From Candidatus Bathyarchaeia archaeon (lineage in GTDB: Archaea > Thermoproteota > Bathyarchaeia > Bathyarchaeales > Bathycorpusculaceae), in NCBI GenBank assembly GCA_049515895.1, contig JBEKTQ010000007.1, forward strand, positions 32,001 through 96,000: a stretch of DNA of 64,000 nucleotides. Reading direction: 5' to 3'. Both the position numbers and the translations under genes were made by a program. This document shows positions 7,886-39,371 of the stretch, in pieces. Within the stretch, counting starts at the first letter, position 1. Every line of letters begins with the position of its first letter. The notes below the pieces were generated by a model, which had not been told where the DNA came from, did not search any database, and saw only the letters and a list, made by a program, of their open reading frames with translations.

Positions 7886-7953
7886 TGCGGTCATGTGATG
7901 AACCTTCGGGTGACATATCCACCTGAATGGGGGTTCAAATCCCAGCTTCCGCA
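7886..7953 (+). ncRNA. Candidate structured RNA, copy 1 (kink-turn-like hairpin plus tRNA-like T-arm)
   Basis: TGCGG/CCGCA closing stem, GTGATGA-ACC-TTCG-GGT-GA-CAT, CTGA, GGG-TTCAAAT-CCC. Similar to 39295-39371. Confidence 0.55.
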
Positions 7954-7991
7954 AAAGGTTGACGACATCGGCGCGCGCTAGGATAAAAAAC

Positions 7992-9802
7992 ATGAAAAGA
8001 CTACAAGTCATAATACTCGCATTTCTAATCTCATTATTAATCTGTGCATTCGTGAGTATGCAAACAAAAGCTGCTACACCTACGCCTACCCCAAGACCTA
8101 CGGCAACCCCCAGACCTACGGCAACCCCAACGCCTAAACCAACGCCAACACCAACGCCAACTCCTAAACCAACGCCAACACCAACGCCAACTCCTAAACC
8201 AACGCCAACACCAACGCCAACTCCTAAACCAACGCCAACACCAACGCCAACTCCACTCCTAAACCAACGCCAACACCAACGCCAACTCCTACTCCTACTC
8301 CAACGCCAACTCCAACTCCAACGCCAACACCAACGCCAACTCCTACTCCTACTCCTACTCCAACGCCAACTCCTACTCCAACGCCAACGCCAACTCCAAC
8401 GCCAGCTCCTACTCCAACTCCAACGCCTACTCCAACTCCAACGCCAACTCCAACGCCAACTCCAACGCCAGCTCCTACTCCTACTCCAACGCCAACTCCA
8501 ACGCCAACTCCTACTCCTACTCCTACTCCAACGCCAACTCCTACTCCAACGCCAACGCCAACTCCAACGCCAGCTCCTACTCCTACTCCAACGCCTACTC
8601 CAACTCCTACTCCAACTCCAACGCCAACTCCAACGCCAGCTCCTACTCCAACTCCAACGCCTACTCCAACTCCAACGCCAACTCCTACTCCTACTCCAAC
8701 GCCAACTCCAACGCCAACTCCAACGCCAACTCCTACTCCTACTCCAACGCCAACTCCTACTCCAACGCCAACGCCAACTCCAACGCCAGCTCCTACTCCT
8801 ACTCCAACGCCTACTCCAACTCCTACTCCAACTCCAACACCAACTCCAACGCCAACTCCTACTCCTACTCCAACGCCAACTCCAACTCCTACTCCTACTC
8901 CAACGCCAACTCCAACGCCAACTCCTACTCCTACTCCAACGCCAACGCCTAAACCGACTTCAACTTCAACTCCAACTCCAACGCCTAAACCAACTCCAAC
9001 GCCAACTCCAACTCCTACTCCTACTCCAACGCCAACGCCTAAACCGACTTCAACTTCAACTCCAACTCCAACGCCTAAACCGACTTCAACTTCAACTCCA
9101 ACTCCAACGCCTAAACCGACTTCAACTTCAACTCCAACTCCAACGCCTAAACCAACTCCAACGCCAACTCCAACTCCTACTCCAACTCCTACTCCAACTC
9201 CAACGCCAACACCAACACCAACCCCAACTCAAACACCAACGCCGACGCCTGCACCGACGCCAACACCAACATTGATGCCCACTCCAACACCAACGCCAAC
9301 GCCAACACCAGCAAAAGCGTTACCGACTGCAACGCCTTCAGCACCACTTGTCAAGGCAACGACAGATGATGGGGTAATAGTTGACCTTGCAATCAGCGGA
9401 AACATAACCAGTTCACAGATGTCTGACGTTACCATCGCGACAAACCCTTCCGTCAAGACAACAACAATATCTTTCACCGTAACAGGCGAAAGCGGAACCA
9501 CTGGCTTCAGCAACCTAACCATCCCAATAAGTGCAGTATCTGATGGAACCACGCCAACAATCTACATTGACGGTCTGCACGCTTCAAACCAAGGCTTCAC
9601 ACAGGACGCCAACAACTACTGTATATGGTACACAACCAGTTTCAGCACACATCAAGTAACAATACAATTCGCAATACCACCGACGTCGAAAGCCGCATCA
9701 TTAGAACCTTCGCTCGCTGTGGGCATAACCGTCCCCGAAATCAGTTTAATCTTCACGGTAATAGCCGTCAGACGTTTGACACGAAAACCAGAAGACGCGT
9801 AA
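7992..9802 (+). pseudogene. Secreted Pro-Thr-repeat surface protein with a C-terminal anchor, broken by a 1-nt frameshift near 8255
   Basis: Signal peptide, then (PT)n. ACTCCA^CTCCT lacks one A. The shifted frame keeps encoding PT and joins ORF 9272..9802 (beta-rich domain, VPEI, hydrophobic segment, RR..RK). Confidence 0.8.
8072..9310 (+). repeat. About 1.2 kb of hexamer (CCN ACN) Pro-Thr coding repeat with higher-order duplications
   Basis: CCAACG, CCAACT, CCTACT and CCAACA units read directly. Confidence 0.95.
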
Positions 9803-9956
9803 GCGAGCGAAAACAACACACATATCAAGTCTAACACAAAGCCCTGTTTAACAACCAAATTTTGCGGTTCGCTCTGCTCGCTTCGCTCGCCACCGCTCAC
9901 ACCAACAAACCCAATTAGGAAAATAAAGAGAGAACATCAGAAAAATGCAGATAGCC

Positions 9957-10574
9957 CTAAAGCTTGCTTTTCATGATTTTTTCCGCTATTTCCAAGTCTT
10001 TGAACGTGTTTATGTTGAGTAATACCTCGAGTTCTTGCGTGATTAAGGCGTTTGTTTCTATCTTTGCTTCAGTTTGGCTTTTGGCGCCGTTAATGATGTT
10101 TACCCCTGACACGGCGTACCACTCGCCCTTGTACTCGTCGGTAGAGTCAACCGAGAGCCCTAAAGCTTCACGGGCTGAAATCGGCACGAAAACCGCGTAG
10201 AAGTCTTTCCCGCAAGCCTCAAACTGGCTGACTATTTTGTCGAGAAACTTGCCAGTGACAGCTGGAGAATCCGCTGGAACCGTTAAAATGGGACCCTGCA
10301 AATTGGCTTGGCGGACTGCCTGCTTCAAATCGTTGTGGTAACCCTTAGCGTCCGTCCGCACAACCTTCCAACCCATGCTTTGGCAGTGCTTCTCCGTTTC
10401 ACGCGTGTTGGGACTCGTTACCACGTAAAACTCCGAAATCTTCTCCGCACTCTCAACTGCCCCTGCAACCCAATCAAGTAGCGGCTTACCCATAAAATGC
10501 AGAAGCGGCTTTTCTACCGGCAATCCGATGCGCTTGCCTTTGCCCCCAGCCATAATCAACGCAGGAACTTTCAT
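9957..10574 (-). CDS. cobY: CobY-like NTP transferase, copy 1
   Basis: ALIMAGGKGKR..EKPL, PAD.P, G.NII, NINT..DL; overlaps cobS. Confidence 0.8.
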   Translation of the reverse strand: MKVPALIMAGGKGKRIGLPVEKPLLHFMGKPLLDWVAGAVESAEKISEFYVVTSPNTRETEKHCQSMGWKVVRTDAKGYHNDLKQAVRQANLQGPILTVPADSPAVTGKFLDKIVSQFEACGKDFYAVFVPISAREALGLSVDSTDEYKGEWYAVSGVNIINGAKSQTEAKIETNALITQELEVLLNINTFKDLEIAEKIMKSKL

Positions 10575-11401
10575 AGCAGAATCAACACGCCTGCAAACAA
10601 AATAAGCATAACTGCCCGCGAAACCTCGTTTGTCGCGCCAATCACGTCGCCGGAAACCCCACCAAAGATGTTTTCTGCAACCTTCTCCATCACCATGGCC
10701 ACTGGGATGCTGACCAGAACTAGCCCGACGGCGATTAAACCCAAGTAGGGTCTGCCTGTCAAAGCGAAGAAGGGGTAAACAATCAGAATGGAAATTGCGT
10801 ACGCGATTATGTTGAGTTTGGTTTTCGCTTTTTGTAGGAAAATCGAGCCTAACCCTTTATGTGTGGGTTTGCCAACCCAGACGATGGTGACCATAGATAG
10901 CTTTGCTGAGATTTCGGCGGCGAGGATGGCTCCGAAAGCGTAAAGCGGGTTAATCAAGAACAAGCCTACAAACGCGACGAACTCGACAATCAGCGCTAAC
11001 AAGGCCCCCCAGTAGGTCACGGTCCACGCGTGCGCGACCATTTTACGGTCTTGCAAGTTTCTTAAGCCAAAGGCGTTTCCTAAATCGATTAAGCCGTCGA
11101 AATGTTGTAGCCCTGTAATGACGAGTAAAAAAGCTATGGTCATCGCGGCAACCGCAAGCTTTGAAAGCAGGTCAACTGGCAAGGCAACAAACGGGTTAAC
11201 TAAACCAAGCAGGAAATGGATGATGATGTTTGCTCCGAGAAAGTAGGCTCCCGCAAGAACGCCGATTAAGCCGCCGATTATGGGAAAGAGGTAAACGTGC
11301 TCTGCCGTCGTAAAAATGAAATCTTCTTTTCCGCCCACTGGGATAATCGTTAGGAAAGACAGCAAATCCCTAAAAGTTTTTATAGCTTTCTCAGGCGACA
11401 T
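10571..11401 (-). CDS. cobS: Cobamide synthase CobS-like membrane protein, copy 1
   Basis: SFLTIIP, FPIIG, TGLQHFDGLID, FGGVSGDVIGA.NE. Confidence 0.82.
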   Translation of the reverse strand: MSPEKAIKTFRDLLSFLTIIPVGGKEDFIFTTAEHVYLFPIIGGLIGVLAGAYFLGANIIIHFLLGLVNPFVALPVDLLSKLAVAAMTIAFLLVITGLQHFDGLIDLGNAFGLRNLQDRKMVAHAWTVTYWGALLALIVEFVAFVGLFLINPLYAFGAILAAEISAKLSMVTIVWVGKPTHKGLGSIFLQKAKTKLNIIAYAISILIVYPFFALTGRPYLGLIAVGLVLVSIPVAMVMEKVAENIFGGVSGDVIGATNEVSRAVMLILFAGVLILL

Positions 11402-11448
11402 ATACCCTACACTAATTGAATCGGGATATAGACTTTGTCGTGGTAGTT

Positions 11449-15935: not shown

Positions 15936-15978
15936 GGCAAACTCCCATCGTGAAGGCTATAGTGTCTTCGCATCAAGG

Positions 15979-18248: not shown

Positions 18249-18249
18249 A

Positions 18250-19350: not shown

Positions 19351-19351
19351 G

Positions 19352-25468: not shown

Positions 25469-25478
25469 AGGGGTTCAC

Positions 25479-25853: not shown

Positions 25854-25933
25854 ATTTCATCCTTCCGTACCCAGCAATAAGAGAAGCCCTTAATTAAGTA
25901 TTTCCAACAGGCATAGCCGTTCCGGAAGACATG

Positions 25934-27259
25934 CTAAATCCCTGTTTGGTTCCAGTAGTAAACATGCTGGTAACCCACGTTCGTAACTGGGTACTGCGGG
26001 TCAGCGTATACTATGTCCAAGCTCACTCTGTACTGTGACAAAAGAGCGCTTGTGCCTATTGCTATCTGCATGGTCTTGCCATCAGTCAGCCAGAAACCCC
26101 AAATCGTATCGTTCGGGTTACGCATTCCCCACCCGTAGTTTTCAGGCAAAACCAGCACGGCATCTGGACCGCTTAAATCAGGAAATTGCTTCTGGTGTAT
26201 GTCGTTCCAGAAGCTTTGCATAGCGATCAACTGGTCATTTGTCAATGCGCCATAGATACTTCCGTTATCATACGGGTAGTTAAAAACTGCAATGTATTTT
26301 GCCCCTGCCTCGTATGAGGTCAGCATTTGATCGTAAATTTGCGATCCGCTGTCCAGATAGTAAGGTTCATCGTCGTACTTCCAAGTGATCATTGCACCCC
26401 ACTCTTTGCCTTGCATTCTTGCGGCTCCCTTCACAAGAGCAATTTGCTCAGCTACGCTGCAGTTCCAACCTAACTCAGCGAACATAACATTGTATCCACC
26501 CAAGTAATCATACCAGTAAAGGGCATAGTCAGAAGTGAATGTTGTGACAGTAGCGTTTTTCAAAAGACTAAGTCCATTGTCTCCTTCAAGGATATCTTGT
26601 GTGAAAAAGTTGGCTTCTAAATCATAGTTTGGAGGGCTTGTTTTGTTATTCATGAAGCCAAGCATCTTATAATAAATCTGATTCAGGTCGTAGATTGGTT
26701 TTATATATCTTTGGTAAGCCTCAGTTTTAGTATAGTTGCCTGTTGTAAAATTGCTACTTAGAAACTGCGGCTGCCAATGACTAAACCAATATGACCAGTT
26801 GCCATCTAGTTGAATGCCCCCTGGCTCGTCGTTGTAATACATTCCCAAGAATTTGTTGCCCCACTTTGTCTTCCATTGCTGCGTAACGTTTAATGATTGA
26901 TTCCAAAACCAGTAGCGGCTGGTGTCAAAAGGTTGTTGGATGCCGACGTTTATAATTACGCTTAACCCGTTAGCGACTGCGTAATCGCAGATTTCATTGA
27001 CCGCTGTTTCGTTTTGGGTAATTGCGTTTCTTCCTGAGTCCAGTATGAAGAGGTTCGTGTAGCCTTTCACTTTGTCAATGAGGATTTTGGCTTCCAGTGT
27101 GGTGTTTCCCCCGAAGGCTACCCCAACATAAACGTTGTTCGGATTAGCCTTAGGTTGGCTTTCAATCGAGTAAGTTGTGTAGGCCCCTACTGAAACAGCC
27201 AATATCACGATTAGGAAAGCAGGAATCAAGTATTTGCTAACTCGCTTTAGGCTGCTCAT
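25934..27259 (-). CDS. Membrane-anchored extracellular protein, paralog of 36900..38045
   Basis: N-terminal TM; VKGYTNLF, YNDEPGG.QLD, TSDYALY, AELGWN, GAA, WG..ITW.Y, GAKYI, LP.NYG.G.R. Confidence 0.8.
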   Translation of the reverse strand: MSSLKRVSKYLIPAFLIVILAVSVGAYTTYSIESQPKANPNNVYVGVAFGGNTTLEAKILIDKVKGYTNLFILDSGRNAITQNETAVNEICDYAVANGLSVIINVGIQQPFDTSRYWFWNQSLNVTQQWKTKWGNKFLGMYYNDEPGGIQLDGNWSYWFSHWQPQFLSSNFTTGNYTKTEAYQRYIKPIYDLNQIYYKMLGFMNNKTSPPNYDLEANFFTQDILEGDNGLSLLKNATVTTFTSDYALYWYDYLGGYNVMFAELGWNCSVAEQIALVKGAARMQGKEWGAMITWKYDDEPYYLDSGSQIYDQMLTSYEAGAKYIAVFNYPYDNGSIYGALTNDQLIAMQSFWNDIHQKQFPDLSGPDAVLVLPENYGWGMRNPNDTIWGFWLTDGKTMQIAIGTSALLSQYRVSLDIVYADPQYPVTNVGYQHVYYWNQTGI

Positions 27260-27441
27260 TGTTAGACCTGCACGAGAATGTTAACTTGTTCCATCCTTAA
27301 TGTCTTACTGTAAAACCTCTCTTTCTGTTAACGGATAGGCAGGAAACAGTTTTTCATATCCGAGTAAACATTTAAGGTTTTCTTGTGAAGTATTTTAAGG
27401 AGTCCAATCATTAACCAACACAGGAAAGGAAGGGAAAGAAA

Positions 27442-27813
27442 TTGGAAAGGGCAAATGTTACAAAGGAAGAAATCCAGCAGCAAGACACTCGTTTCTTGGC
27501 AGTTTATGTTGAATCAAAGAATTCCTGTATGGTAATGTTGAGCGAAAGAGAAGACAAGCTTGGAACATTAGCGATAGCTGTTCCCAAACCCAAAGAAGGC
27601 GTTGGCGCTGTCACGTCCTCTGTGCTTCTCGGCGACAAAAACATTATTTCGGCGCGGATGTTTGCTGAGTATGTTGCTTCTAAGAAGGGAAAAATTGCCC
27701 TTGTTTCAGTTTACCTTGAGAAAGTGGGCGAAATTCAGGCCCAGGGATTCTTCAATAAGCTTATTGACAAGCTCATTAAAAGCGAAAACCAAAAGGAGCC
27801 TACTGCAACCTGA
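27442..27813 (+). CDS. Putative proteasome assembly chaperone PAC3/PAC4-like protein
   Basis: 123 aa with LGTLAIAVP...SSVLLGD...AR..AE..A....IALVSV, recalled as PAC4-like. Confidence 0.5.
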   Translation: MERANVTKEEIQQQDTRFLAVYVESKNSCMVMLSEREDKLGTLAIAVPKPKEGVGAVTSSVLLGDKNIISARMFAEYVASKKGKIALVSVYLEKVGEIQAQGFFNKLIDKLIKSENQKEPTAT

Positions 27814-27839
27814 TAAAAACGCAGGCTGGAAAGCTTGCC

Positions 27840-28352
27840 GTGAAACAGGGAAATCCCATGATTTACCAATTGGCAACCGCCGATATTCCAGCAATCCTAA
27901 GCGTGGTAAACAGCGCCGCAATCGCCTATAAAGGGAAAATCCCAAGTGACGCATGGAAAGAGCCTTACATGCCAGAGCAAGAGCTTGAAGAAGAGATCCG
28001 CAGTGGCGTGAAATTTTACGGCTGCAAAGACAACGACGTTTTAATGGCAGTTATGGGAATCCAACGTGTGCGGGATGTAACTTTGATTAGGCATGCTTAT
28101 GTGCTGCCGGCCATGCAGCGTAGAGGCTTGGGGCAAAAATTGTTGGAGCATTTGATGGGTTTGGCTGCGACACGTCAGGTTTATGTTGGGACATGGGAGA
28201 CTGCAAGCTGGGCTGTGAAATTTTATGAGAAAAACAGGTTTCAACTCGTGCCATCTGCGGAAAAGAACAGGTTGCTAAGGACTTACTGGAGAATTTCGGA
28301 GCGGCAGGTTGAAACGTCAGTAGTGCTCAAACTTAAAAGGCAACTTAGATGA
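27840..28352 (+). CDS. GNAT acetyltransferase
   Basis: YVLP..QRRGLG..LL, A..FYEK..F. Confidence 0.88.
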   Translation: MKQGNPMIYQLATADIPAILSVVNSAAIAYKGKIPSDAWKEPYMPEQELEEEIRSGVKFYGCKDNDVLMAVMGIQRVRDVTLIRHAYVLPAMQRRGLGQKLLEHLMGLAATRQVYVGTWETASWAVKFYEKNRFQLVPSAEKNRLLRTYWRISERQVETSVVLKLKRQLR

Positions 28353-29440
28353 AAGAAACCTTATTGCTCAAAGTTGACTCTCAAAATCCAGATGCTTCCA
28401 AAATACAGGTTGCTGCGAAATTCATCCGCAAAGGCGGGTTAGTAGCTTTTCCCACCGAGACTGTCTATGGTTTAGGCGCAGATGCTCTGAATGCTGATGC
28501 TGTTTTATCGCTTTTCGAAGCTAAAAAGCGGCCTTTAGATAATCCTCCAATCGTTCACATCGCAGACCCTAAGGAAATCTACAGGCTGGTTGAAGAAGTG
28601 CCGAAAAAAGCAGAGTTATTGATGAAACGATTTTGGCCAGGTCCGTTGACGCTGGTTTTTAAGCGTTCAAGCGTCGTCCCTAGCGTGACCGTTGCAGGTT
28701 TAGAAACAGTTGCAGTTCGAATGCCTAAGCATAAAGTGGCTTTAGCGTTGATAAGGCAAAGCGGTTGCCCAATTGCTGCTCCAAGCGCAAACCTTGCGGG
28801 GAAACCCAGCCCTACAACCGCTCAGCATGTTTTTGAGGATTTAAATGGCCGCATCGACGTTATCTTGGACGGTGGCGCCACAGACATCGGGGTTGAATCA
28901 ACTGTTGTGGACTTGAGCGTTGATCCGCCTATGGTTCTTCGGCCAGGCGGAACGTCTTTTGAAGCGTTAAGGCAGGTTTTGGGTGACCTGAGACTTCACC
29001 CTTTCGTTCTTGCTGAGGCTGAGTTGCCCCTGGAAAAGACGCGTTCTCCGGGAATGAGGCATAAGCACTATGCACCTAAAGCGGAAGTAATACTCGTGGA
29101 AGGAAACGTTCCGGAAGTGATTGCCAAGGTCAAGGAGCTGTCTGAATTTTACAGGCTTAAAGGGGTAAAGGTCGGCGTCTTAGCCACTGACGAAACGCAA
29201 ACCAACTACAGGGCCGACGTGATTAAATCGTTAGGAAGCCGCTTTAACTTGGCCGTTGTAGCCCAGAGCCTTTTCCGCTTATTGAGAGAAATTGATGCGG
29301 AAAATGTCGGCGTCATAATTGCTGAAAGTGTTTCTTCTGAAGGGCTCGGATTAGCCGTCATGAACAGGCTTCGCAAAGCGTCAGGCTACCACATCGTCAA
29401 AGCAAACTCAGCTCAAGATTCAAGCGGAACGCAAGCTTAG
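28349..29440 (+). CDS. sua5: Threonylcarbamoyl-AMP synthase Sua5
   Basis: FPTETVYGL, K.RP.DNP, PSAN.AG, SPGM...HYAP, MNRL.KA. Confidence 0.96.
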   Translation: MKETLLLKVDSQNPDASKIQVAAKFIRKGGLVAFPTETVYGLGADALNADAVLSLFEAKKRPLDNPPIVHIADPKEIYRLVEEVPKKAELLMKRFWPGPLTLVFKRSSVVPSVTVAGLETVAVRMPKHKVALALIRQSGCPIAAPSANLAGKPSPTTAQHVFEDLNGRIDVILDGGATDIGVESTVVDLSVDPPMVLRPGGTSFEALRQVLGDLRLHPFVLAEAELPLEKTRSPGMRHKHYAPKAEVILVEGNVPEVIAKVKELSEFYRLKGVKVGVLATDETQTNYRADVIKSLGSRFNLAVVAQSLFRLLREIDAENVGVIIAESVSSEGLGLAVMNRLRKASGYHIVKANSAQDSSGTQA

Positions 29441-29731
29441 CAGCGACGAATTTGGCTGTGATGCCAGCGGCTGGCGCAACTAAACCCGTATTCTATTTTT
29501 TGGACTTTCCACGTATCAGCAGTTGCAACCCTTGAAGTAAAAAAGTTAATCTGAAAATGCCCTCAGAGCCCTTATGGAAAAACGATTATATAACTTAATC
29601 ACGACGAGAAACAAGTATTATTTATCGCTCTTGGCTCTCTGCACGGGCTGCGCCCGGGATTCTCTCCGAGTGAAGCAGTACATCAACGACGAGGGAAGTA
29701 ACCCCCAAAGATTTTTCCAACAGCCACACAT

Positions 29732-30331
29732 TCAATTTGCCAGTTGATACACATTTGCATTTGTTAGTTCATAAGCAGCTGTTGTAGTTCCATTTGAAAA
29801 CAATGAGGCAAAAGCGTTGGAAGTATCTTTAACTGAGAATGTTATGGTGAAGTTTTGAGGATTTCCTATGGGCATAATGTCAACGTATTTGTCTTGCATC
29901 CCAGATTGACCTTTAGTTTCAGAAAGAAAAGTAGCTGTTGTTCCGTTATGGGTTTGACCATCTGATTCTGAAGCCCAGTTAGGGGCGGTTATATTGTTTG
30001 ACCCATAATTCGAAAACCATGTTATATTCGCATTCTCAGTTGTGAGGACAAGCTGAAGAGATGTATCCATCTTGCCTGTATTTTCCCAACTTAAATCGAT
30101 TATCAGGGGTGTATTCGAATTCACATGAGTATATGTGCTTGGCATTATTGTGGTATAAATCGGACCATAGGGATTAAAATCCCACACCATGGGAACATAC
30201 GCATACCCTGTCATACCGTAATCAATTATTGGTCTTGACTCCCAAACAAAAACTGTCATAGCGATTAAAACTACAGCAATTATTACTGCAAAGGTCAAAA
30301 CAACTGTTCTCTTAGGAAGTGCTTTCATCAT
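29732..30331 (-). CDS. Hypothetical membrane-anchored secreted protein
   Basis: N-terminal TM, Asn/Thr-rich, several sequons. Confidence 0.65.
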   Translation of the reverse strand: MMKALPKRTVVLTFAVIIAVVLIAMTVFVWESRPIIDYGMTGYAYVPMVWDFNPYGPIYTTIMPSTYTHVNSNTPLIIDLSWENTGKMDTSLQLVLTTENANITWFSNYGSNNITAPNWASESDGQTHNGTTATFLSETKGQSGMQDKYVDIMPIGNPQNFTITFSVKDTSNAFASLFSNGTTTAAYELTNANVYQLAN

Positions 30332-30491
30332 TATCTCTACTACGTTGAGTAAGGTTGTTCTTAATTCTAACTAATAGAACACAGCTAAAACCTTCACAAT
30401 CTTTCCAACATTTGACATCTCAGCTTGTAAGTGAATGGCAAAACATAAATCACGCCTGCTTTGATACTCAATTTATGCGAAGGTAATTTGC

Positions 30492-30983
30492 ATGATAACC
30501 AGAGTAGCTGAGATGACTCTTGCCGGGCTTGCTCTGATTTCTTTGTTGTTTTTTGGCAGCTTTGCCTTGCTTTATCAAATTGCCACTCAATTATGTGAAT
30601 CCATCTTCATTGATTATAGTTGGCTTCTCAACAATATTCGGATTAGCGTTTGGGCTATTTTCTGGACGCTGGTTTACAAAGACCAGCTGAAAAGCTTAAC
30701 AACAAAAGGTGAATGGTTAGGGAAAGAATCAAAAAAATATTTATTTGCCACCATCGCTGGGCTTATGGTATTCCTGCTTGTTTCTTTCTCAGGGATCCTT
30801 CTCAATGCAGGCTCATCCCGCGGGTTTTTCGCAGTAGGCGAATTTTTCTTTGTTATTTCAGCAACCTTCACTTTGTACGTTGAAAGGATGATTCTTATTG
30901 GCAGATGGGAGAGGCAAACTAAAAGAACCATATGGGCGGATTGGAATCACTTTTTTGGAAGACTCTATGTCTCTTTTAGTTGA
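30492..30983 (+). CDS. Hypothetical membrane protein
   Basis: 163 aa with about four hydrophobic segments. Confidence 0.55.
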   Translation: MITRVAEMTLAGLALISLLFFGSFALLYQIATQLCESIFIDYSWLLNNIRISVWAIFWTLVYKDQLKSLTTKGEWLGKESKKYLFATIAGLMVFLLVSFSGILLNAGSSRGFFAVGEFFFVISATFTLYVERMILIGRWERQTKRTIWADWNHFFGRLYVSFS

Positions 30984-31016
30984 TCCAAAATAGTTAGTTT
31001 TCGTTTATCTCTAAAG

Positions 31017-32369
31017 TTAGTGCTGTTGACTTGTGGACTTAGTTTTCAATCTCCTTCTAAACATTAAGAAAACCGCTACGGCAACTACAGCGACGACAAT
31101 CAATCCGCCTACTATGATGAAAAGTGTGTTAGACGAAGTAGGCGAGCCAATTGCATAGAAATTGCCGTCCTGAGACCCAATATAGACTACGCCATTAAAG
31201 ATAGCTGGCGAAGAGTTTATCTGGTTTTGAGTAGGAAAAACCCACACTTGAGACCCCGTCGTGGCGTTAAGGGCATAAACATCCTCATAACCCCCCACAT
31301 AAACCACCCCTTCTGCAACAGCGGCAGAGGACAAAATGCGAGGAATATTGGCTTTCCATATTTGCGTGCCCGTTGAAGCGTTAAGAGCATACATGACGCC
31401 ATCCACCGAACCCACATAAACTACTCCATTAACTACTGCGGGAGAAGCTTGAACCCCATAATAGTAGCCTCCTGCATACAAGTTGGTTGGGTAGGTGTAG
31501 AAACTCCATACTTTGGCACCCGTTGATGCGTTAAGAGCGTAAATGTTGCCACCTACGGAGCCCACATAAACAATTCCTTCACTAACGGAAGGCGAAGACG
31601 TTACTCGGTTGCCCGTTGTGTAGAGGGGTTGGATGCTTGTTGTGTAGTTCCAAATTTTGGCGCCTGTTAAGGCATTAAGCGCATAAACGTTGCCATCGTC
31701 TGAGCCCACATAAACAACTCCGTTTACGACCGCAGGTGAAGACTCAATCTCGCCTCCAGAAGTGTAGTTCCACAATTTAGTGCCCGTTGAAGCGTTGAGA
31801 GCGTAAACATTGCTGTCGAGTGAGCCTATGTAAACTACACCGTTGACCATGTCTGGTGAAGAATCAATCCTGTCGCCAATTGGGTAGCTCCATATTTTGG
31901 CGCCTGTTGAAGCGTTAAAGGCACAAACGTTGTTGCCTGCACCGATATACAGCACGTTTCCAGACACAGCAGGAGACGAATACACTGCGCTGTTGATTGA
32001 ATAATTCCATATTTTGACGCCTATATAGGCGTTAAAAGCATAAATAACGCCGCTGTTGCCGTTATTATAAAGTGGATTTGCGCTGTTATTCCAATTAGAC
32101 CCAACATATACTACTCCGTTAACAATGGCTGCGGAGGAACCGATTTGGCTGCCATCAAAATGTCCTTCAACGTAGCTCCAAAGCTTAACAGGTTGTACGG
32201 GTCCAGTGTTATTTGTAGCACCTGTATGTGCAGAGTTATTAAGGAACATCGACCAATCTCCAGAAGACTGCTTAGCATCCACTTTTGGCGCTAAAGCTAA
32301 AAACATTGATAAACACAAAATAGCAATAAACGCAAACGCTAATGTTCCTAGGTTTCTTTTCTTTTTCAT
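31017..32369 (-). CDS. Secreted PQQ-type (BamB-like) beta-propeller protein with a C-terminal anchor
   Basis: About 7-8 repeats of SSPAV.NGVVYVGS.DG.VYALNA.TG..IW; signal peptide; TM plus RRR. Confidence 0.92.
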   Translation of the reverse strand: MKKKRNLGTLAFAFIAILCLSMFLALAPKVDAKQSSGDWSMFLNNSAHTGATNNTGPVQPVKLWSYVEGHFDGSQIGSSAAIVNGVVYVGSNWNNSANPLYNNGNSGVIYAFNAYIGVKIWNYSINSAVYSSPAVSGNVLYIGAGNNVCAFNASTGAKIWSYPIGDRIDSSPDMVNGVVYIGSLDSNVYALNASTGTKLWNYTSGGEIESSPAVVNGVVYVGSDDGNVYALNALTGAKIWNYTTSIQPLYTTGNRVTSSPSVSEGIVYVGSVGGNIYALNASTGAKVWSFYTYPTNLYAGGYYYGVQASPAVVNGVVYVGSVDGVMYALNASTGTQIWKANIPRILSSAAVAEGVVYVGGYEDVYALNATTGSQVWVFPTQNQINSSPAIFNGVVYIGSQDGNFYAIGSPTSSNTLFIIVGGLIVVAVVAVAVFLMFRRRLKTKSTSQQH

Positions 32370-32640
32370 TCGTTTTCCAATTTGCTATGGCTGTTGAAGC
32401 GATAAAAGAGTTATCGTCAAGGATTCTTGACTAAAGGTTTCTTGACAAAGCTTGACCATTGAGTTTCTGGATAGGAAGAATCATTTTTTTTGATTTTTTG
32501 GCTTGAAAAATGGTTCATCATGGACTTTGATTCAATAACGAAGGAAGTTTCTCCATGGTTTTTTTGGTGTTGATTAGTAATCCCAAGCAATCCACAATTA
32601 TATAACATGTTTCCTGCTTCTTCTGCCAAGGTTTATCAAT

Positions 32641-33051
32641 TTGGATATTAGGCTTCAAGTTTTCGAGTATTATACGGATGACAATAGTGGGCGAAAAAAC
32701 TTTCGCTTCGCTGTTGTTAACAGTATTAAGTCCAAGAGTTATCCTCAGAATTTTGTTTGCATGCTACCTTCACAATTCGGAAAAGGAAAAGTAGATAGTG
32801 CGTTCCTTAAGTTATTCGGAGACAGAAGCTGGGAACAAGCCAAATCCTTGTTGAAAGCCGCTCGGGAGCAGGAAGATGATTCTGAAATTAAAGCAGAAAT
32901 TGAGAGAAGACTCAAACTACTTGAGCCTAAAGGAGCTAATCAAATAAAGTGCAGTAGCTGCGGAAAACTCTTTCAGCCCAGACGAATAAAAAGGTTCAAG
33001 AACAATTTTTGCGGAGAATGCATGAAGAAAAAGTTTGGAGACCGAGTATAG
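32641..33051 (+). CDS. Hypothetical protein with a C-terminal Zn ribbon
   Basis: CSSCGK..FCGEC. Confidence 0.7.
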   Translation: MDIRLQVFEYYTDDNSGRKNFRFAVVNSIKSKSYPQNFVCMLPSQFGKGKVDSAFLKLFGDRSWEQAKSLLKAAREQEDDSEIKAEIERRLKLLEPKGANQIKCSSCGKLFQPRRIKRFKNNFCGECMKKKFGDRV

Positions 33052-33152
33052 AGTAGGCTTCTATGCTTTAAGCTGATATAATCAAATGGATATGTTTTTC
33101 ACTACACACATATCGTTAATTCTGATTTCAAATTAGTAATAAGACGATTGGT

Positions 33153-33428
33153 ATGAGGCGTTCTAAAATAGAAATGTACGTTGACATCCTTACAGTTCTG
33201 ACCAATAGAGGACCACTAAATCTAACACACGTCAGTTATCAAGCAAATGTTAACTGCTCTATCCTAAAAGAGCGCCTTGACTTTCTCATTAAACAAGGTT
33301 TAGTAGAAGAAGGCGCAGTAAGGAAACAGCGTGTAGTTTACGGTGTTACACAACGTGGAATGACCGTTCTGAAATCCTTTAAAGAACTAAAACAGGTGCT
33401 ACCCATGGTAGAGGAAGAGGAAGCATGA
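33153..33428 (+). CDS. Winged-helix regulator (HTH_45-like)
   Basis: MRRSK.E...DIL, ANVN...L...L.FL...GL, T.RG. Confidence 0.88.
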   Translation: MRRSKIEMYVDILTVLTNRGPLNLTHVSYQANVNCSILKERLDFLIKQGLVEEGAVRKQRVVYGVTQRGMTVLKSFKELKQVLPMVEEEEA

Positions 33429-33543
33429 AACCAAGCAGCAATACCCTACTGAACATCCTACCCGTTTCATTTTATGCAACTTTTTTAATGCTCAAAAGTC
33501 TTAAATCTACAAGTTACAGAATAAAATTATTCAGGGTTTTGTA

Positions 33544-33891
33544 TTGGACCCACAAGAAGTTGCTGTCGCTTTAGAAAAGACTTACGTGCTTGTTGTACGA
33601 GTGGTTAATTTTCAAAGAAATAAACCAATCAAGAATGTTAACGTTAAAGTTTTCATATTGGAAAAGGCACCAATAACGCTCCAACAATGGGCTGAAAATC
33701 TCAAAAATGGAGCCCCATTTAAAAAGTTGATACTCTCGATGAATACCGACAATGATGGTAACGTAACTGCTGAACTTGCAGAGGGCTCTTATGAAGTGAA
33801 AGTCGAAAAATACGGTTTAAATAAACCCTTTGAATTAACGCAAAATGACAGAGTTCTCTTTATTGAACCGAAAAAGCATTGGTGGCAATAA
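33544..33891 (+). CDS. Hypothetical protein, possible transthyretin/Cna-B-like fold
   Basis: PI.NV.V.V..TD.DG.V...L.EG.Y.V.VEKYG. Confidence 0.6.
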   Translation: MDPQEVAVALEKTYVLVVRVVNFQRNKPIKNVNVKVFILEKAPITLQQWAENLKNGAPFKKLILSMNTDNDGNVTAELAEGSYEVKVEKYGLNKPFELTQNDRVLFIEPKKHWWQ

Positions 33892-34343
33892 GTCTTGAAT
33901 CTGCACAGGGTAGAATAGCCTAAAGAGAAAAAGGTGGTCGTAGTATTCTCAATTACATTTTTTTCCATAATAGGATAAATCGCCTTTGAAACCTTCGATT
34001 AAATTTCCTACTGCAGCTTGAGATTGTAAGAAAGAATCTATATATGCCGTATCACTTAAGAATTCGACCAATGGTTCAATAACCTCTTCAAATGATAATT
34101 TCTTCTTGCCTTGAACCTTTTCGGGTAAATATTGTTTAAAACTAAGATGGAAGAGGGAAAATTCTATTCAATAACAGAAATGAGCCACATGTTAGTTGGA
34201 ATCCGACTTTTTGAGGAAGATAAATGATATTGGATTGAAGCCGACTTGAAGTAGTATATTTCTTGGTGGTTCTTGTCGTATGTGTTGCCCTATTTTTCGG
34301 TCTGTTCGTGAGTATAGGAGTTACTGACGCTGTAATCTTAACT

Positions 34344-34721
34344 TTAATCGTTGCTTTCATTACGGTTCTCTTTGGCTACATTTTGTTCGTCAGAAGTGGT
34401 TGTTTCGTCATTCAGATCAACTTCGTTCTTTTCCCTAACGCAACCGCTGGGTCTGTAAACTAAAACCAATTCCTCGCATACTCTGCCTTCGAGCTTGCCC
34501 AATTCTGTACACATTCTGCTTTTGACTTCATCCTCTGGCACGGTACAAGTTCTAATAGTGGCTTTCTCTAATCTTAACAAGGTGCCATCATTCTTTTCAA
34601 TATACGTTTTGATTTTAACTTCGCCAATTCTTTCTCCTGCTTCCTGCCCCATAAATAATCTTCCTTTCTCGACTTTCTCTTCCATTTCTTTGGGCCTTCC
34701 CCAAACCCTTTGGACCCACAT
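34344..34721 (-). CDS. Hypothetical protein
   Basis: 125-aa ORF with an upstream TATA-like element. Confidence 0.45.
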   Translation of the reverse strand: MWVQRVWGRPKEMEEKVEKGRLFMGQEAGERIGEVKIKTYIEKNDGTLLRLEKATIRTCTVPEDEVKSRMCTELGKLEGRVCEELVLVYRPSGCVREKNEVDLNDETTTSDEQNVAKENRNESND

Positions 34722-34960
34722 ATCCTATTATTAACTAATAATAAGAAAGGTAAGCCTATTAGTTTAACGCGAAAAGTGAGTTTTGAAAGAGAACTTCCTT
34801 GTTAAGAAAAGGCATGTTCTTCAAGACATTTTGGAATTAGTTCATGAATTTTATGTGGCAACCGTAAGTATCTTGTATAAGACTGACTGGCTAGGGGTTG
34901 TAGGTTTTTCATACTTCTTTTTTGATTGTTAAATGTTGTGTCAAGATGTGACAACATAAG

Positions 34961-34989
34961 GTAATATACTGTACAGTATAGTATATTAC
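34961..34989. promoter_or_regulatory. Inverted repeat (candidate operator) upstream of a small Zn-ribbon gene
   Basis: GTAATATACTGTAC-A-GTATAGTATATTAC; 14-bp arms, one mismatch. Confidence 0.6.
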
Positions 34990-35007
34990 GATAAGAGATA
35001 ATCTAAA

Positions 35008-35133
35008 GTGACTGAATGCCCTTGCTGTCATAAAGAAGTTTCAAAACCTCAAACGCTTTTACAGAACAGCTATTTCGTCATCGAAGCCTATACTTGTAAT
35101 GAATGTAAGGGCAAATTCAAGATAATAAAATAA
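35008..35133 (+). CDS. 41-aa Zn-ribbon microprotein (not in the ORF track)
   Basis: MTECPCCHKEVSKPQTLLQNSYFVIEAYTCNECKGKFKIIK*. Confidence 0.7.
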   Translation: MTECPCCHKEVSKPQTLLQNSYFVIEAYTCNECKGKFKIIK

Positions 35134-35141
35134 CTTCTGTT

Positions 35142-35354
35142 CTACGGCTTAAAAATAATCAAGTAATCCTTGTTCTCTTCAAGAGAGAACTTTCTATTTT
35201 TCAGTAATAACTCAATTTCTTCGCGGTCATAATCGCCTTTAATCTGTAATTGGTGACTGTCAGGGGTTCTTTGTTTGATGAGAACGAAAGTGGGTTGTAT
35301 TAAATGCTCTGTACCTAATTCCTTCAATAGAGCAACAGCTTCTTTCCTATCCAA
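35142..35354 (-). CDS. Small hypothetical protein
   Basis: MDRKEAVALLKEL..LIIFKP; GAGGGG RBS-like element upstream. Confidence 0.7.
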   Translation of the reverse strand: MDRKEAVALLKELGTEHLIQPTFVLIKQRTPDSHQLQIKGDYDREEIELLLKNRKFSLEENKDYLIIFKP

Positions 35355-35605
35355 CAGGTTACCCCTCAGTCGATCGACTTATGAACGTACAAGACTAATA
35401 ACGCTTTGCTATGTACTTTACAGTAACTTAGTTCAAGTTTTCATTGATGATAAGTCTTAAATCTGAATAGCGTAGAAATAGCCTATCATGGAATAACAAT
35501 CGAAGGCGAAAACAAATGGAAAACACTAATACAAAACGCTGCAAAAACAGCTTAAGGGGTAATTATGTTTTGATTTTTTCGGTTTTTCTGTTTAGTCGCT
35601 AATCT

Positions 35606-35794
35606 TTAAGTTTTTTCGATTAATTGACTCGCTTCAAAGACACAGATTATATCGGTGCTTTGCTTTATGCTGTCACAGTCAATCAGGTGTGCTGTTCCGT
35701 CTGGGCAGTAGACTTTGTCACCTTTTAAAGTTTTTTTGTATCGTACACTGCATTCCTTAAGCATGATACAGCCATCGCAATCTCTTGAAAGCAT
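35606..35794 (-). CDS. Small Cys-rich protein
   Basis: CDGC..C..YCPDG..H; GAGGTG RBS upstream. Confidence 0.65.
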   Translation of the reverse strand: MLSRDCDGCIMLKECSVRYKKTLKGDKVYCPDGTAHLIDCDSIKQSTDIICVFEASQLIEKT

Positions 35795-36324
35795 TCTTTT
35801 TTCACCTCTACTTATGTTCGGAAGCAGAGAGTATCCGTGGGGGAGCTAATATAGCTTCTCTTAATAATCTATATATAAATTAACACATAAACAAGTGTCC
35901 CACGAAACTTAACACCGCGGTTTACACCGAAAACCTATCCAACAAGTTACTCCTCACTCCACTTGTGAACGTACAAGACTAATAGCTTGGATACAATAGA
36001 CCAAAATCGATAGGTAATGAATAATAGTTAAGTTTCCAGAGTAATCAAAATAAATAAGAAAAAGCATTGTCATCAAGGCTTTTTGGACTTAGTTCATGGA
36101 TTTAAATGTGATTTCAAACTAAAATTTGCGTAGCTCTATTTCATGGCTAAAAAGTGTGAGAAGATATCTAAGTGACATTTAAAACAACATTACACCTGCA
36201 AGATAACACAGATTCCTTCAGGTTAACGCTCTATTTTTTGGTGGAAAAATGGATTTATTAGTGACTTAGACTTTCGAGACAACCCTTAAACCTGCAAATC
36301 TAATAATATTATTTTGGGATTGGT

Positions 36325-36837
36325 ATGGAAGACGAAGTGGTGATCGTAGAAGTTAAACCCAAGATGTTTAATATTACAAACGAACCGGGCAAAAGCACCT
36401 TCAGGCTTTGTTACAAAAAAGAACTTTATGAAGTTAATCAACCAATAACCAAAAAACCAGAATACTTAGCTATCAGAGCCCCAGCAGGCGTCTGGATAGA
36501 GATGCTGTTTGCGATTGACCAAGTCAAATCAAACTTTCAAAAAGGACAAATTGTTCCCCAAGGATGTCCAATGAAAGTTAGCATCCCGCTTAGAATGAAG
36601 GATAGAACGTCAACATGGCACAAAATCTGGTACACATCCTTCAGAACTTTGCTAACTCACAGTTCATCTGAAGAGTTTGGCGAGGAGAAATCAAAGCCTA
36701 TCACACAAGTAATCATTGAAGATGACCGGATTCTCTGCAACGGATATGAATGCAAGCATTTCAGCTACTGCAAGTACTTTAACCATTCACCGAGTGCTGT
36801 TATAAGTACTGTACCTAAAACAGATTATTCAAGTTAA
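36325..36837 (+). CDS. Hypothetical protein with a C-terminal Cys cluster
   Basis: 170 aa; C-x4-C-x5-C. Confidence 0.6.
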   Translation: MEDEVVIVEVKPKMFNITNEPGKSTFRLCYKKELYEVNQPITKKPEYLAIRAPAGVWIEMLFAIDQVKSNFQKGQIVPQGCPMKVSIPLRMKDRTSTWHKIWYTSFRTLLTHSSSEEFGEEKSKPITQVIIEDDRILCNGYECKHFSYCKYFNHSPSAVISTVPKTDYSS

Positions 36838-36899
36838 ATAATATGGTAGGTGCCACGCTATTCTTTTATTGTTGCCCTGCTATTTGAATTCTGATATAG

Positions 36900-38045
36900 A
36901 TGAAAAGGCTGTATGTGTACGCATTAGCCCTTCTGCTTGTTGTCTTGTTGCTTGGTTTGGTTATAGAATTTTACATTACAAATCACGCGGCGACAGCTTC
37001 TCCGAATGTTTCTGTTGGCATTGACGCTGCTTTCTCAGGCGTAGCAAACGTTGAGGAACTTGTTAACGAGGTTAAATCATACACGAACTTTTTTGTCATC
37101 GGCAGCACTGTAATCACCTATAACATGTCCGAACTCAATCAGACTTGCCAGTACCTCAATGATAGCGGACTCTGCTTTGCGCCTTTCATGCACATTAATC
37201 CTGAAGCTTTCAATCAGACGCAGTGGGTAATTCAAGCCCAGCAGAATTGGGGAAGCCATTTCTGGGGTTTGTTCCCTTATGATGAGGCTGGAGGTGCACA
37301 AATAGATAAGGCAAGATCTTCAGTTGAAAATGGCAACATATCCCTTATGCTTGTACAAGAAGCTGCCAACTATACAGATGCGGCTGATAAATTCGTGTCA
37401 AACTTAAGCGGTGATTTGGCACCGTTCAAGTTTAACGATGTTCCCTTGATGACCTCTGATTATGCTCTCTATGAATTTGATTACAGAGCAGGCTACAATG
37501 TAGTCTTAGCTGAGCTCGGGTATAACTTGAGCAAGCCACTACAAGTAGCGCTATGCAGGGGAGCAGCCACAATGCACAACGATGATTGGGGCGTCATAAT
37601 AACTTGGACTTACGGACAACCGCCCTATTTAGAAAACGGAAGCCAACTTTTCGACGACATGGTATACGCTTACCAAAGTGGAGCAAAATACATACTCGTA
37701 TTTGACAGCAACCTAAATTACACTCAAAATGTTCTGCAACAAGGACAACTCGATGCTATGAAGCAATTCTGGAATTACATAAAGGCAAATCCGAGAGAAG
37801 AAAACAATGTTCAGGACAGAGTAGCTTTTGTGCTTCCAGCAAATTACGGATACGGTTTTCGAGGACCAAACGACACTATTTGGGGTTTATGGTCTGCAGA
37901 CAACCTCTCAGCAAACATATGGAACAACGTCACCAGTTTGTTCGAGCAATACAAAACAAATATTGATGTAATCTACGAAGACGATCTACAATTCAGCATA
38001 AGCAATTACAGCAAACTAATATTTTGGAACGGGACAGTAATTTAA
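36900..38045 (+). CDS. Membrane-anchored extracellular protein, paralog of 25934..27259
   Basis: VKSYTNFF, YDEAGG.QID, TSDYALY, AELGYN, GAA, WG.IITW.Y, GAKYI, LP.NYGYG.R. Confidence 0.8.
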   Translation: MKRLYVYALALLLVVLLLGLVIEFYITNHAATASPNVSVGIDAAFSGVANVEELVNEVKSYTNFFVIGSTVITYNMSELNQTCQYLNDSGLCFAPFMHINPEAFNQTQWVIQAQQNWGSHFWGLFPYDEAGGAQIDKARSSVENGNISLMLVQEAANYTDAADKFVSNLSGDLAPFKFNDVPLMTSDYALYEFDYRAGYNVVLAELGYNLSKPLQVALCRGAATMHNDDWGVIITWTYGQPPYLENGSQLFDDMVYAYQSGAKYILVFDSNLNYTQNVLQQGQLDAMKQFWNYIKANPREENNVQDRVAFVLPANYGYGFRGPNDTIWGLWSADNLSANIWNNVTSLFEQYKTNIDVIYEDDLQFSISNYSKLIFWNGTVI

Positions 38046-38223
38046 AAAAATTATTTCCATTAAATGAATAGCTTAGCTTTATAGCAATATTCTTTGATTG
38101 CTGTTTGACGCTATTTCTCTCGCTAAGCTGGAGCCTTCGACCTTGTTGAGGTGAAATGAAACTTGAAAAATCGCAGTTTTTGCTATAGCTCTGCTATTGA
38201 AACCCAAAAGGAATTAAACAGAC

Positions 38224-38391
38224 TCAAGGAATTTCTGTTTTATTGTCACGTAGAGCTAACCAGCGTTTAAACTCTAGTCCAGTACACTTGCCTTTCCTCA
38301 GCCAGTTGTCACCGTACTTCTCGTTCAGCCTTTCATCGTAGGACCTAAAAGTTTCTGATTCAGTTACTTCTATGCTATTTCTTTTCTTCAA
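38224..38391 (-). CDS. 55-aa hypothetical protein (not in the ORF track)
   Basis: MKKRNSIEVTESETFRSYDERLNEKYGDNWLRKGKCTGLEFKRWLALRDNKTEIP*. Confidence 0.4.
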   Translation of the reverse strand: MKKRNSIEVTESETFRSYDERLNEKYGDNWLRKGKCTGLEFKRWLALRDNKTEIP

Positions 38392-38540
38392 TTATTAATA
38401 GCTCCAGTTTGACTCTTATACATGTCTCCGCTTAAAGTTAAGCCTAACTGCTAACATCGAAAAGGAGGGTCAGTGACTTTCAAACGAGGCACGCTAAACC
38501 TCCAAATCACACTCAGAATTTTTCCGAAATTATGGTGATT

Positions 38541-38753
38541 TTACAAACGATTTTGAGGAATCCAAAAGAATGGTGAATTTGTCTGTTGAACCACTTCCAG
38601 CTTTCCGCCACACATAGGGCATTCTAAGGGTGATTTCTTCTGAAAATATATTAGTTCCACCCAACATGTGTAGCAAAAGTAAATCTGACATTTTAGGCAC
38701 CACTTAAAGCCTCCTCCAATCATCCTACCGCAATCATCACAAGGTTTGTTAAA
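38541..38753 (-). CDS. Small RING-like protein with four CxxC pairs; start unresolved
   Basis: The frame extends 10 codons upstream of 38723: FNKPCDDCGRMIGGGFKWCLKCQIYFCYTCW..ECPMCGG. Confidence 0.65.
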   Translation of the reverse strand, partial: FNKPCDDCGRMIGGGFKWCLKCQIYFCYTCWVELIYFQKKSPLECPMCGGKLEVVQQTNSPFFWIPQNRL

Positions 38754-39294
38754 TCAACCATAATTAGCGTTCTTCCATGTGATGCATGAGTTAGTGTTTG
38801 TCTTATCGGAGACGCTACAATCTCCTTATAGTTAAAGGGAGGCAGTACCCTTTGGGCGAAACATAATGGAGGGCAAAGTAACTTGGATAAGTGATAAGCG
38901 CAGACACCCCGAAAGATACAAAGAAGAAAACGAAACCTACCCGCAAGCGTTAATCAATGTAGAGAATGGGCTCAAATGTATTCCGTCAAGGTTATCAAAG
39001 TAGAGGATTTACCTGAATTTTGCTCCCCTATTTCTGGCAATAAGCTAATCGAATTTTGTGACGAACTATGCAAGCAACGAAGCTCTGAAAAAGCATGCCT
39101 AAAACTGGAGCAATTGAAAGGAAGAGATTCCCGAAAACGTTTTAGATTTTAAAGCCACCTAAGCCGCGACAAGGCTAATTCATCTAAAGCCCACTCAGAC
39201 TCAAAGGTTATACCGGGTTTTTGAATATCTTTACAATGTTTTAGTCAACTGAAAGAATTTTTCCAAAGGAAAGAAATTGTAAAATTGAACTTAC

Positions 39295-39371
39295 TTAACG
39301 TGTGATTAACCAAAAAAAGGAGGAAGCGGGTGACATCTCCACTGGTAGGTGGTTCAAATCCAACACCTTGC
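39295..39371 (+). ncRNA. Candidate structured RNA, copy 2
   Basis: TGTGATTAACC-N17-GGTGACATCTCCACTGGTA-GGTGG-TTCAAAT-CCAAC-ACCTTGC; aligns with 7886-7953. Confidence 0.5.

Follow-up and report, generated by a model that had tools for sequence, protein, structure and literature searches.

The 64-kb window analysed here (64,000 nucleotides (nt); positions 32001–96000 of contig C7, which is 189 kb long) comes from the 3.18-Mb, 53-contig assembly of a Candidatus Bathyarchaeia archaeon. Bathyarchaeia are uncultured archaea that are abundant in peat and sediment and whose mobile elements are poorly mapped; the window DNA itself finds its matches in peat and wetland metagenomes. The window contains two short related sequences, copy 1 at 7886–7953 and copy 2 at 39295–39371. 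A preliminary description took them for a two-copy RNA-like motif, in which a kink-turn hairpin with a box C is joined to the T-arm of a transfer RNA (tRNA), and it preferred a new tRNA-mimic small RNA or leader, possibly with L7Ae as its binding protein and RNase P/Z as processing enzymes, as the explanation. Here we report that the two copies are probably attachment-site junctions, members of a dispersed family left by mobile elements that insert into the tRNA genes of this bathyarchaeal lineage. The RNA-like motifs are then most likely recombination-site scars, each consisting of a module and a copied tRNA tail, rather than a new RNA gene.

Both copies lie in strain-specific DNA. Copy 1 is part of a 2.43-kb insertion (7540–9969) that also carries an open reading frame (ORF) for a Pro/Thr-rich surface protein (7959–9275) and an ORF of 176 amino acids (aa). 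The sequences that flank this insertion (up to 7539, and from 9964–9972 onwards) lie 78–115 nt apart in four relatives (G004, G019, G003 and G013). Copy 1 is found 345 nt inside the left end and is oriented towards the surface-protein gene. Copy 2 is part of about 10.1 kb of DNA between the Sua5 and thermosome genes (29405–39537), and lies 167 nt from the right end of this DNA, oriented outward. Thermosome orthologues of 59 of the 60 other genomes of the genus begin to align only at window position 39538, and the distance from Sua5 to the thermosome gene is 0.7–0.9 kb in G072, G019 and G016, versus 10.1 kb here. In seven relatives, the Sua5–thermosome locus contains no tRNA and no family member. 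The right part of the larger insertion (32–39.4 kb) has a G+C content of 0.365–0.39, compared with 0.441 for the genome, and the ORFs of the insertion are unknowns except for a winged-helix protein and a PQQ-repeat protein. The earlier remark that both copies border accessory DNA therefore holds, because each is inside a strain-specific insertion.

Both sequences are real and related. Pairwise alignment recovered a common core, CGGGTGACAT(A/C)TCCAC followed after 7–8 nt by GGTTCAAATCC, and upstream of it an 11-mer, TGTGAT(G/T)AACC. The parts of both copies are on the plus strand. Copy 2 has the 11-mer TGTGATTAACC (39301–39311), a complete module (39312–39342) and a tRNA-like tail of GGTGGTTCAAATCCAAC and ACCTTGC (39347–39371). 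Its module is made up of an A-run (39312–39318), a G-box of sequence GGAGG (39319–39323) and GCGGGTGACATCTCCAC, in which the palindrome GGTGA-CA-TCTCC occupies 39329–39340. Copy 1 has the 11-mer TGTGATGAACC (7894–7904), which includes the 'box C' GTGATGA and is common only to copy 2, then the module core GGGTGACATATCCAC (7908–7922), from which the A-run and G-box are gone, and a tRNA-derived tail (7929–7953) that comprises the T-arm-like GGGGGTTCAAATCCC and an acceptor 3′ strand ending in CCGC-A. The palindrome of copy 1 is degenerate (GGTGA-CA-TATCC), with an A replacing a near-invariant C. As no other member among those examined, 23 from this genome and 43 from relatives, has the 11-mer beside the core, copies 1 and 2 are each other's closest relatives. 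Their tails differ despite the common 11-mer, which is expected if the left part moves with mobile DNA and the tail mirrors the target. Compared directly using blastn-short, the two copies gave no match at E ≤ 10.

The motif is far from limited to these two places. Scanning the full assembly by motif and by BLAST revealed six further clear copies, and iterated nhmmer searches brought the family to about 23 members in the genome, all of them intergenic. We aligned 20 of these members (alignment A2) and 43 members from other genomes only (A3), 63 together. A sequence-only covariance model built from A2 matched 53 of 61 related genomes (37 of the 43 high-quality ones). The matches covered 10 of the 12 families and 18 of the 21 genera in the order, and individual genomes had between 0 and 40 of them. 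The profile built from A3, and thus from relatives only, recovered 19 members in the genome and exactly two matches in the window, copy 2 at 39312–39369 (E = 6.1e-13) and copy 1 at 7906–7952 (E = 1.3e-9). Because a profile made only from relatives hits exactly these two places, both copies are genuine members, and their likeness is far beyond chance. Copy 1 aligns to the profile only from position 20 and is a degenerate member that has lost the A-run and G-box. The 17-nt stretch AAAAAAAGGAGGAAGC of copy 2, previously read as an insert in a loop of variable length, is the conserved A-run and G-box of the family. Among IMG/VR contigs, a longer pattern identified a single true member, L065, as well as two of doubtful status; ten IMG/VR matches to a 17-mer fell within coding sequence, had neither A-run nor T-arm, and were taken as chance.

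The consensus module is about 45 nt long and consists, in this order, of an A-run of 5–8 A, a G-box (GGGG or GGAGG), TTTG and CGGGTGAyATCTCCAC. The palindrome inside it is GGnGAnnTCnCC. On the 3′ side, 7–8 variable bases lead to the T-arm-like GGGTTCAAATCCC, and members end with about 8 nt that resemble an acceptor 3′ strand, an A and sometimes CCA, often with a T-run next. In GGnGA-nn-TCnCC it is the symmetric positions that are near-invariant, with free variation at the centre and in the middle pair, a pattern of conservation that reads as a DNA site. The module is present once per unit and on one arm only. A partial variant, GCGGGAGACAyCaCCAC, has no tRNA tail and forms doublets with full members that lie 107–110 nt downstream of it (contig C1:31250–31430; L014 1501–1661; and, in G016:C5, which is L047, 765–813/656–728 and 5776–5827/5667–5740). 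Such pairs of one partial and one full module may represent a two-site arm architecture.

We consider it very unlikely that the members are structured small RNAs or cis-leaders, that is, tRNA mimics with a kink-turn hairpin that are transcribed from each copy and act as RNA. Copy 1 does fold better than its shuffles (z = −2.4), and it contains GTGATGA, CTGA and GCGG...CCGC-A just as had been described, with tandem G.A pairs possible, although it has no C′/D′ boxes and no guide regions of the kind found in archaeal box C/D RNAs. Several members have a T-run just after the tRNA-like 3′ end, and AT-rich stretches are found before the A-run, which makes transcription conceivable, and 11–12 of 20 members of this genome are oriented towards a downstream gene. 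The fold and boxes of copy 1 are not those of the family, however. Copy 2 reads GTGATTA, so that the kink-turn G.A pair is lost, and has no CTGA; it folds no better than shuffles (z = +1.07) and into a different structure. Neither box C nor box D was seen in the 63 aligned members, and both boxes and the G.A pairs are peculiar to copy 1.

Alignment-wide measures gave the same picture. RNAalifold returned no consensus structure for A2 (−0.06 kcal/mol, two invariant pairs). When the pairs of the T-stem and palindrome were counted in A3, 73.4% of cells were paired compared with 74.8% in shuffles, and measures of covariation were equalled or beaten by 461–475 of 500 shuffles, with no excess over slid controls either. 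The T-stem, which had been described as remaining partly paired, is paired in only 65.8% of A3 cells. Searches with Rfam yielded nothing in the window at gathering thresholds and only noise at E values of up to 10, among it C/D matches at E 0.18–6.7 that were far under their gathering scores; RF00005 had no match on contig C7, and ARAGORN called 0 tRNA genes in the window. With no conserved structure or covariation, boxes private to copy 1 and decayed T-stems, the preferred reading of the preliminary description is unsupported, and a false lead is removed: there is no evidence here for a new tRNA-mimic or kink-turn RNA. Two further readings of the module were tried and rejected. For a small ORF with GGAGG as Shine–Dalgarno sequence and the codons GTG ACA TCT CCA, the GTG is GAG or GAA in 5 of 20 members of this genome, a TAG stop stands in frame two codons upstream in the member on C26, and the T-loop occurs in two reading frames. 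If the tail is paired like an acceptor stem with GCGGGTG or with the G-box, the fit, by eye, is to Leu-type tails but not to Ala-type or Arg-type ones, and RNAalifold gave a null result for this pairing.

The variable 3′ part of the members comes from a genuine tRNA, namely its T-arm and acceptor 3′ strand, and this tRNA differs between members. Leu, Ala, Arg, Cys, Ser and Phe tRNAs are represented, with tails from tRNA-Leu(TAG) in C1a and L015, from tRNA-Ala in three members on C23, from tRNA-Arg on C26, from tRNA-Cys on C8 and from tRNA-Ser(GCT) on C43. We scored the 23 tails of the genome against the 3′ ends of all of its 44 ARAGORN tRNAs, and 8 of the 23 scored at least 17 (Leu-TAG 23, Cys 22, Arg 22, Ala 19 and 18, Leu-GAG 19, Ser 17 and one tie at 17). 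The Leu-GAG tail is that of copy 1, for which the runner-up was tRNA-Gly(TCC) with a local score of 17; at one mismatch or fewer, this tail is found in no tRNA of 61 genomes of the genus. The tail of copy 2 reached a best score of 15, mostly owing to the T-loop, and has no matching tRNA in the assembly; a member of G001 (L049) has a tail that resembles it. The match to a known tRNA fragment that had been named beforehand as speaking against a new RNA is thus found for the family, and RNA function leaves unexplained why tails track the neighbouring tRNA. Of the three earlier proposals, the tRNA-derived dispersed element is the one borne out, as the T-arm and acceptor part is copied from real tRNA 3′ ends.

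Members hold a T-arm, an acceptor 3′ strand, a discriminator and sometimes CCA, and there is no ARAGORN tRNA in the genome for Asp, Trp, Tyr and some other anticodons. Both facts would suit 3′ halves of tRNAs that are split or trans-spliced, or exons of tRNA genes rich in introns and overlooked by ARAGORN. We give this reading next to no credence. The genome already has complete versions of the tRNAs that the tails duplicate, T-stems are often broken, and one common 'leader' precedes differing acceptor strands. A search with GCGGAAG for a 5′ half of copy 1 found nothing tRNA-like among the matches listed, and copy number ranges from 0 to 40 among close relatives. Unlike tRNA genes, the copies hold only the T-arm and 3′ acceptor strand and no cloverleaf. 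ARAGORN called 46 tRNA genes in this genome, several with long or odd introns, and the missing Asp, Trp and Tyr tRNAs may carry non-canonical introns that the program does not detect. A partial tRNA (positions 8–63 of the Rfam model) lies at C23:12122–12179, directly downstream of a tRNA-Ala gene.

Intact units connect the family to integration. In closed or nearly closed relatives we mapped members, tRNAs and tyrosine-recombinase genes together, and examined ten regions. The order of an intact unit is a complete tRNA gene, a tyrosine integrase gene and, some kilobases on and on the same strand, a family member. In four units, the tail of the member repeats the 3′ end of the upstream tRNA exactly over 21–31 nt; a fifth was identified by score. 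In G030:C2 (L043; G030:C2:138900–145200), a tRNA-Phe gene is directly followed by a convergent gene for an integrase of 391 aa, small ORFs and a Rep-like gene, and the member, 5.4 kb downstream, repeats 21 nt of the tRNA exactly, CCA included. In G030:C3, a tRNA-Leu(CAG) gene and an integrase precede a member 6 kb on (23 nt exact) and a second member 2 kb further. In G016:C5, the member lies 3.6 kb from tRNA-Ala(TGC), with an exact repeat of 25 nt plus 6 nt of flank and without a recognized integrase. On contig C8 of our own assembly, tRNA-Cys (96989–97062) and an integrase ORF (95771–96946) are matched by a member at 77138–77203 (21 nt and a similar flank), and in L092 a tRNA-Cys gene and an integrase are followed by a member 2.9 kb on (tail score 21). 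The integrase thus lies beside the tRNA gene and inside the interval in C8, G030:C2, G030:C3 and L092, and not in G016:C5. The identity blocks start at about tRNA positions 49–57. A tRNA gene, an integrase and a member with an exact repeat are the signature of the far junction of an integrated element. Genomic islands in tRNA genes (tDNA islands) are mapped by just such a pair, with the tRNA gene regenerated at one end and its displaced 3′ fragment at the opposite end, and the identity blocks here correspond to the class with its crossover in the T-stem/T-loop region (PMC4383910).

The integrases of three units are 47–57% identical to one another, and almost all of their relatives come from Bathyarchaeia or Bathyarchaeota metagenome-assembled genomes (MAGs). 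The N terminus of the integrase is cysteine-rich and zinc-ribbon-like, with a weak match to DUF7838. We surveyed 80 bathyarchaeial loci of one integrase clade, and in 34 of these the integrase is convergent with, and 20–90 nt after, a tRNA gene, mostly tRNA-Cys(GCA); the pairing of this integrase with tRNA-Cys is widespread in the class (for example, L076, L082–L086, L091, L103 and L105–L107). We also considered whether module and integrase clade are strictly linked, which was not supported. The unit in G030:C2 (L043) is a compact 5.4-kb element at tRNA-Phe that consists of the integrase, the Rep-like (REP_ORF2-G2P) gene and four unknown ORFs, and is a candidate small integrative plasmid or virus of Bathyarchaeia.

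We propose a mechanism that builds on the observed family membership, tail origins, unit order, arrays and strain-specific insertions. A tyrosine integrase would bring about recombination between the site of the element, composed of the module and a tRNA-like core, and the T-loop region of a target tRNA gene. That core, or identity block, would comprise the T-arm, the 3′ acceptor strand and some additional bases of the tRNA, with the halves of the T-stem acting as the core binding sites. Recombination would regenerate the tRNA gene at one end of the insert, beside the integrase gene, and the other end would be marked by a displaced or duplicated tRNA 3′ fragment that now stands behind the module. 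The module would be the element-side arm beside the crossover. Repeated integration at one tRNA gene, accompanied by integrase loss, would produce same-strand arrays of short cassettes split by junctions. The two window copies, which have no partner tRNA, would, we infer, be relics or carried-along copies of the site and not active junctions.

The symmetric palindrome (a 12-mer) and the A-tract probably act as accessory protein-binding and bending sites of the recombination complex, given their symmetric conservation, the fixed spacing and the doublets 107–110 nt apart. Candidates for the protein that binds the palindrome are the zinc-ribbon-like N terminus of the integrase and an accessory factor. 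No conserved neighbour gene emerged as a candidate binder, as the largest neighbour group touches only 7 of 81 members. Symmetric conservation is typical of protein-binding DNA sites, and would also suit a promoter or operator module of a stress regulon, with the palindrome as the site of a dimeric transcription factor for redox and stress genes next to it. Genes beside members include those for thermosome, hybrid-cluster protein, rubrerythrin, hemerythrin and universal stress protein, as well as nitroreductases and a thioredoxin-reductase-like gene. Yet members are co-oriented with, divergent from or convergent to these genes, at distances of 4–720 nt; the thermosome gene is served by an AT-rich box of its own, some 100 nt downstream from copy 2, and its orthologues have no member in 59 of the 60 genus genomes. 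An operator would also leave the exact tRNA repeats and the arrays downstream of tRNA genes unexplained, and we regard it as extremely unlikely.

Members also occur in arrays. Among 81 members of 6 genomes, there are 21 pairs of neighbours within 10 kb, and 20 of these are on the same strand (one is on opposite strands), with 107 nt to 7.9 kb between the members. Arrays lie downstream of tRNA-Ala (C23 of our assembly, L018 and L047) and of tRNA-Leu (C2 of our assembly and L026), and the tails come from that same tRNA. Units between members contain 1–3 ORFs in either orientation, and most arrays have no integrase beside the tRNA gene. The cargo is accessory in type, and comprises toxin–antitoxin pairs, nitroreductases, PadR, Kelch and PQQ-repeat surface proteins and many unknowns. 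The largest neighbour group consists of distantly related nitroreductases, found at 4 loci in 4 genomes (C2:186173–186682 of our assembly; L021 804–1355; L033 249–764; L023 109–741) with identities of 20–31%. Large PQQ or β-propeller surface-type proteins, some with Big_3_5, are also recurrent cargo (C23:20082–22994 and C1:222047–224704 of our assembly; L047 2510–5428 and 6086–9079), and one is encoded inside the 10-kb insertion of the window (31020–32369).

Such arrays raise the possibility of an integron-like cassette system, in which the module and T-arm mimic form a dedicated site and single genes or small groups of genes are captured and shuffled, anchored at tRNA genes, by genomic integrases acting in trans. 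Targets would be tRNA genes and pre-existing family sites, the short units without an integrase would be functional, and the window copies would be cassette borders. Several observations fit. Arrays are same-strand with spacings of 0.1–8 kb, units of 0.4–1.4 kb carry 1–3 ORFs, and toxin–antitoxin pairs and small enzymes are cargo typical of cassette arrays. Members bound nitroreductase-family genes at the four loci listed above, both window copies lie within small insertions at non-tRNA loci, and the site is the only conserved piece, given that no gene family is kept beside the module. Against this, no cassette was found at two different places, the nitroreductases being just 20–31% identical, and ORF orientation is mixed relative to the sites. 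Many tails and T-stems are decayed, as expected for relics, and neither a circular cassette nor excision was observed. Tandem integration followed by integrase loss has already been described for archaeal elements (PMC8371274). On balance, we consider a cassette system unlikely.

Several results weigh against reading the family as attachment-site junctions, and they concern both the family and the window. A same-strand tRNA gene is present within 20 kb upstream of only 7 of the 23 members of this genome, at least 5 of the 23 have no tRNA-like tail, and most members have no integrase nearby. Only 6 of the 80 loci of the integrase clade have a member in the 10-kb flank on the side where one is expected, and just 1 combines a convergent tRNA with a member. 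In at least two of five genomes with such loci, no plausible far end carries a member. The integrase clade thus does not have the module universally. No empty sites were recovered for the intact units: the search for G030:C2 matched 1 of 81 genomes, which was G030 itself, and the C8 island gave no usable empty site. No free circular form was found among IMG/VR contigs. The placement of the module on the element side follows from the standard integration model, not from observed excision.

In relatives, neither of the loci where the window insertions lie is at a tRNA gene, and neither insertion has flanking direct repeats of 11 nt or more. There is no partner tRNA and no integrase (PF00589) on the 189-kb contig of the two copies, and the tails of both copies have no exact match to a present-day tRNA. 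Copy 1 points into its insertion and not outward, so that the junction geometry seen in the five units is not reproduced at the window copies. Contigs assembled from four DNA runs over window positions 25000–44000 were short, and none had a joint that bridges the island or ends at copy 2.

That integration into tRNA genes leaves a displaced fragment is well known, and the family resembles the fragments of tDNA islands (PMC4383910) in having a tRNA gene and integrase at one end, a 3′ copy in the same orientation at the other, an identity block that starts in the T-stem or T-loop, and tandem arrays at one tRNA gene. It differs in that the island-side sequence is one module of about 45 nt across at least six tRNA targets in one archaeal order, and in that most members, the window copies included, have no integrase or partner tRNA and some have no tRNA part. 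Lambda-type intasomes assemble on attP arms with arm-type integrase sites, Xis and IHF sites and intrinsic bends. The partly symmetric motif and A-tract of the family, at a fixed distance (7–8 nt plus the T-stem) from the crossover, are reminiscent of such arms, but the motif is on one arm only and protein binding is putative. To our knowledge, the archaeal integrases studied so far have mostly been described with simple sites.

Integron attC sites consist of imperfect inverted repeats (R″-L″...L′-R′) that form a hairpin with extrahelical bases, together with an IntI integrase. The attC sites and the cassette arrays that lack an integrase (CALIN) share with the family the short, often single-gene units on the same strand, the recurring site, and the cargo of toxin–antitoxin pairs and small enzymes. 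Unlike attC, the family conserves sequence and not a hairpin (there is no overall inverted repeat, and no consensus hairpin by RNAalifold), its site holds a tRNA fragment, its arrays are anchored at tRNA genes, and its ORFs are of mixed orientation. Two aspects seem to be undescribed: a module that elements across an order have in common even though they target at least six different tRNAs, and the abundance of same-strand arrays without integrases. The full texts searched and passages covered contain no description of the module or the arrays.

The module profile offers a practical marker for the far ends and old scars of integrated elements in Bathyarchaeia genomes, and it flags strain-specific insertions, as it did with both copies in the window. 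If the module is a protein-binding arm common to integrases with different targets, it would provide a handle on how these integrases assemble. If instead the cassette reading were true, the family would be a gene-capture platform beyond classical integrons that builds same-strand arrays in most genomes of an order.

Two further features of the window insertions were noted. The ORF beside copy 1 (7959–9275, plus strand) encodes 438 aa with a signal-peptide-like start and no Pfam match, and GC skew over 8–9 kb is −0.74. Its Pro/Thr-rich part has many matches in this genome and in relatives, which indicates a repetitive surface-protein family. In the larger insertion, many joints and loose ends of metagenome contigs converge at 35144–35777, most sharply at 35435–35486, where about 50 nt have a summed contig depth approximately 8-fold above that of the surroundings in all four peat and wetland runs. 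A short repeat present in multiple copies probably lies there, within the low-GC island.

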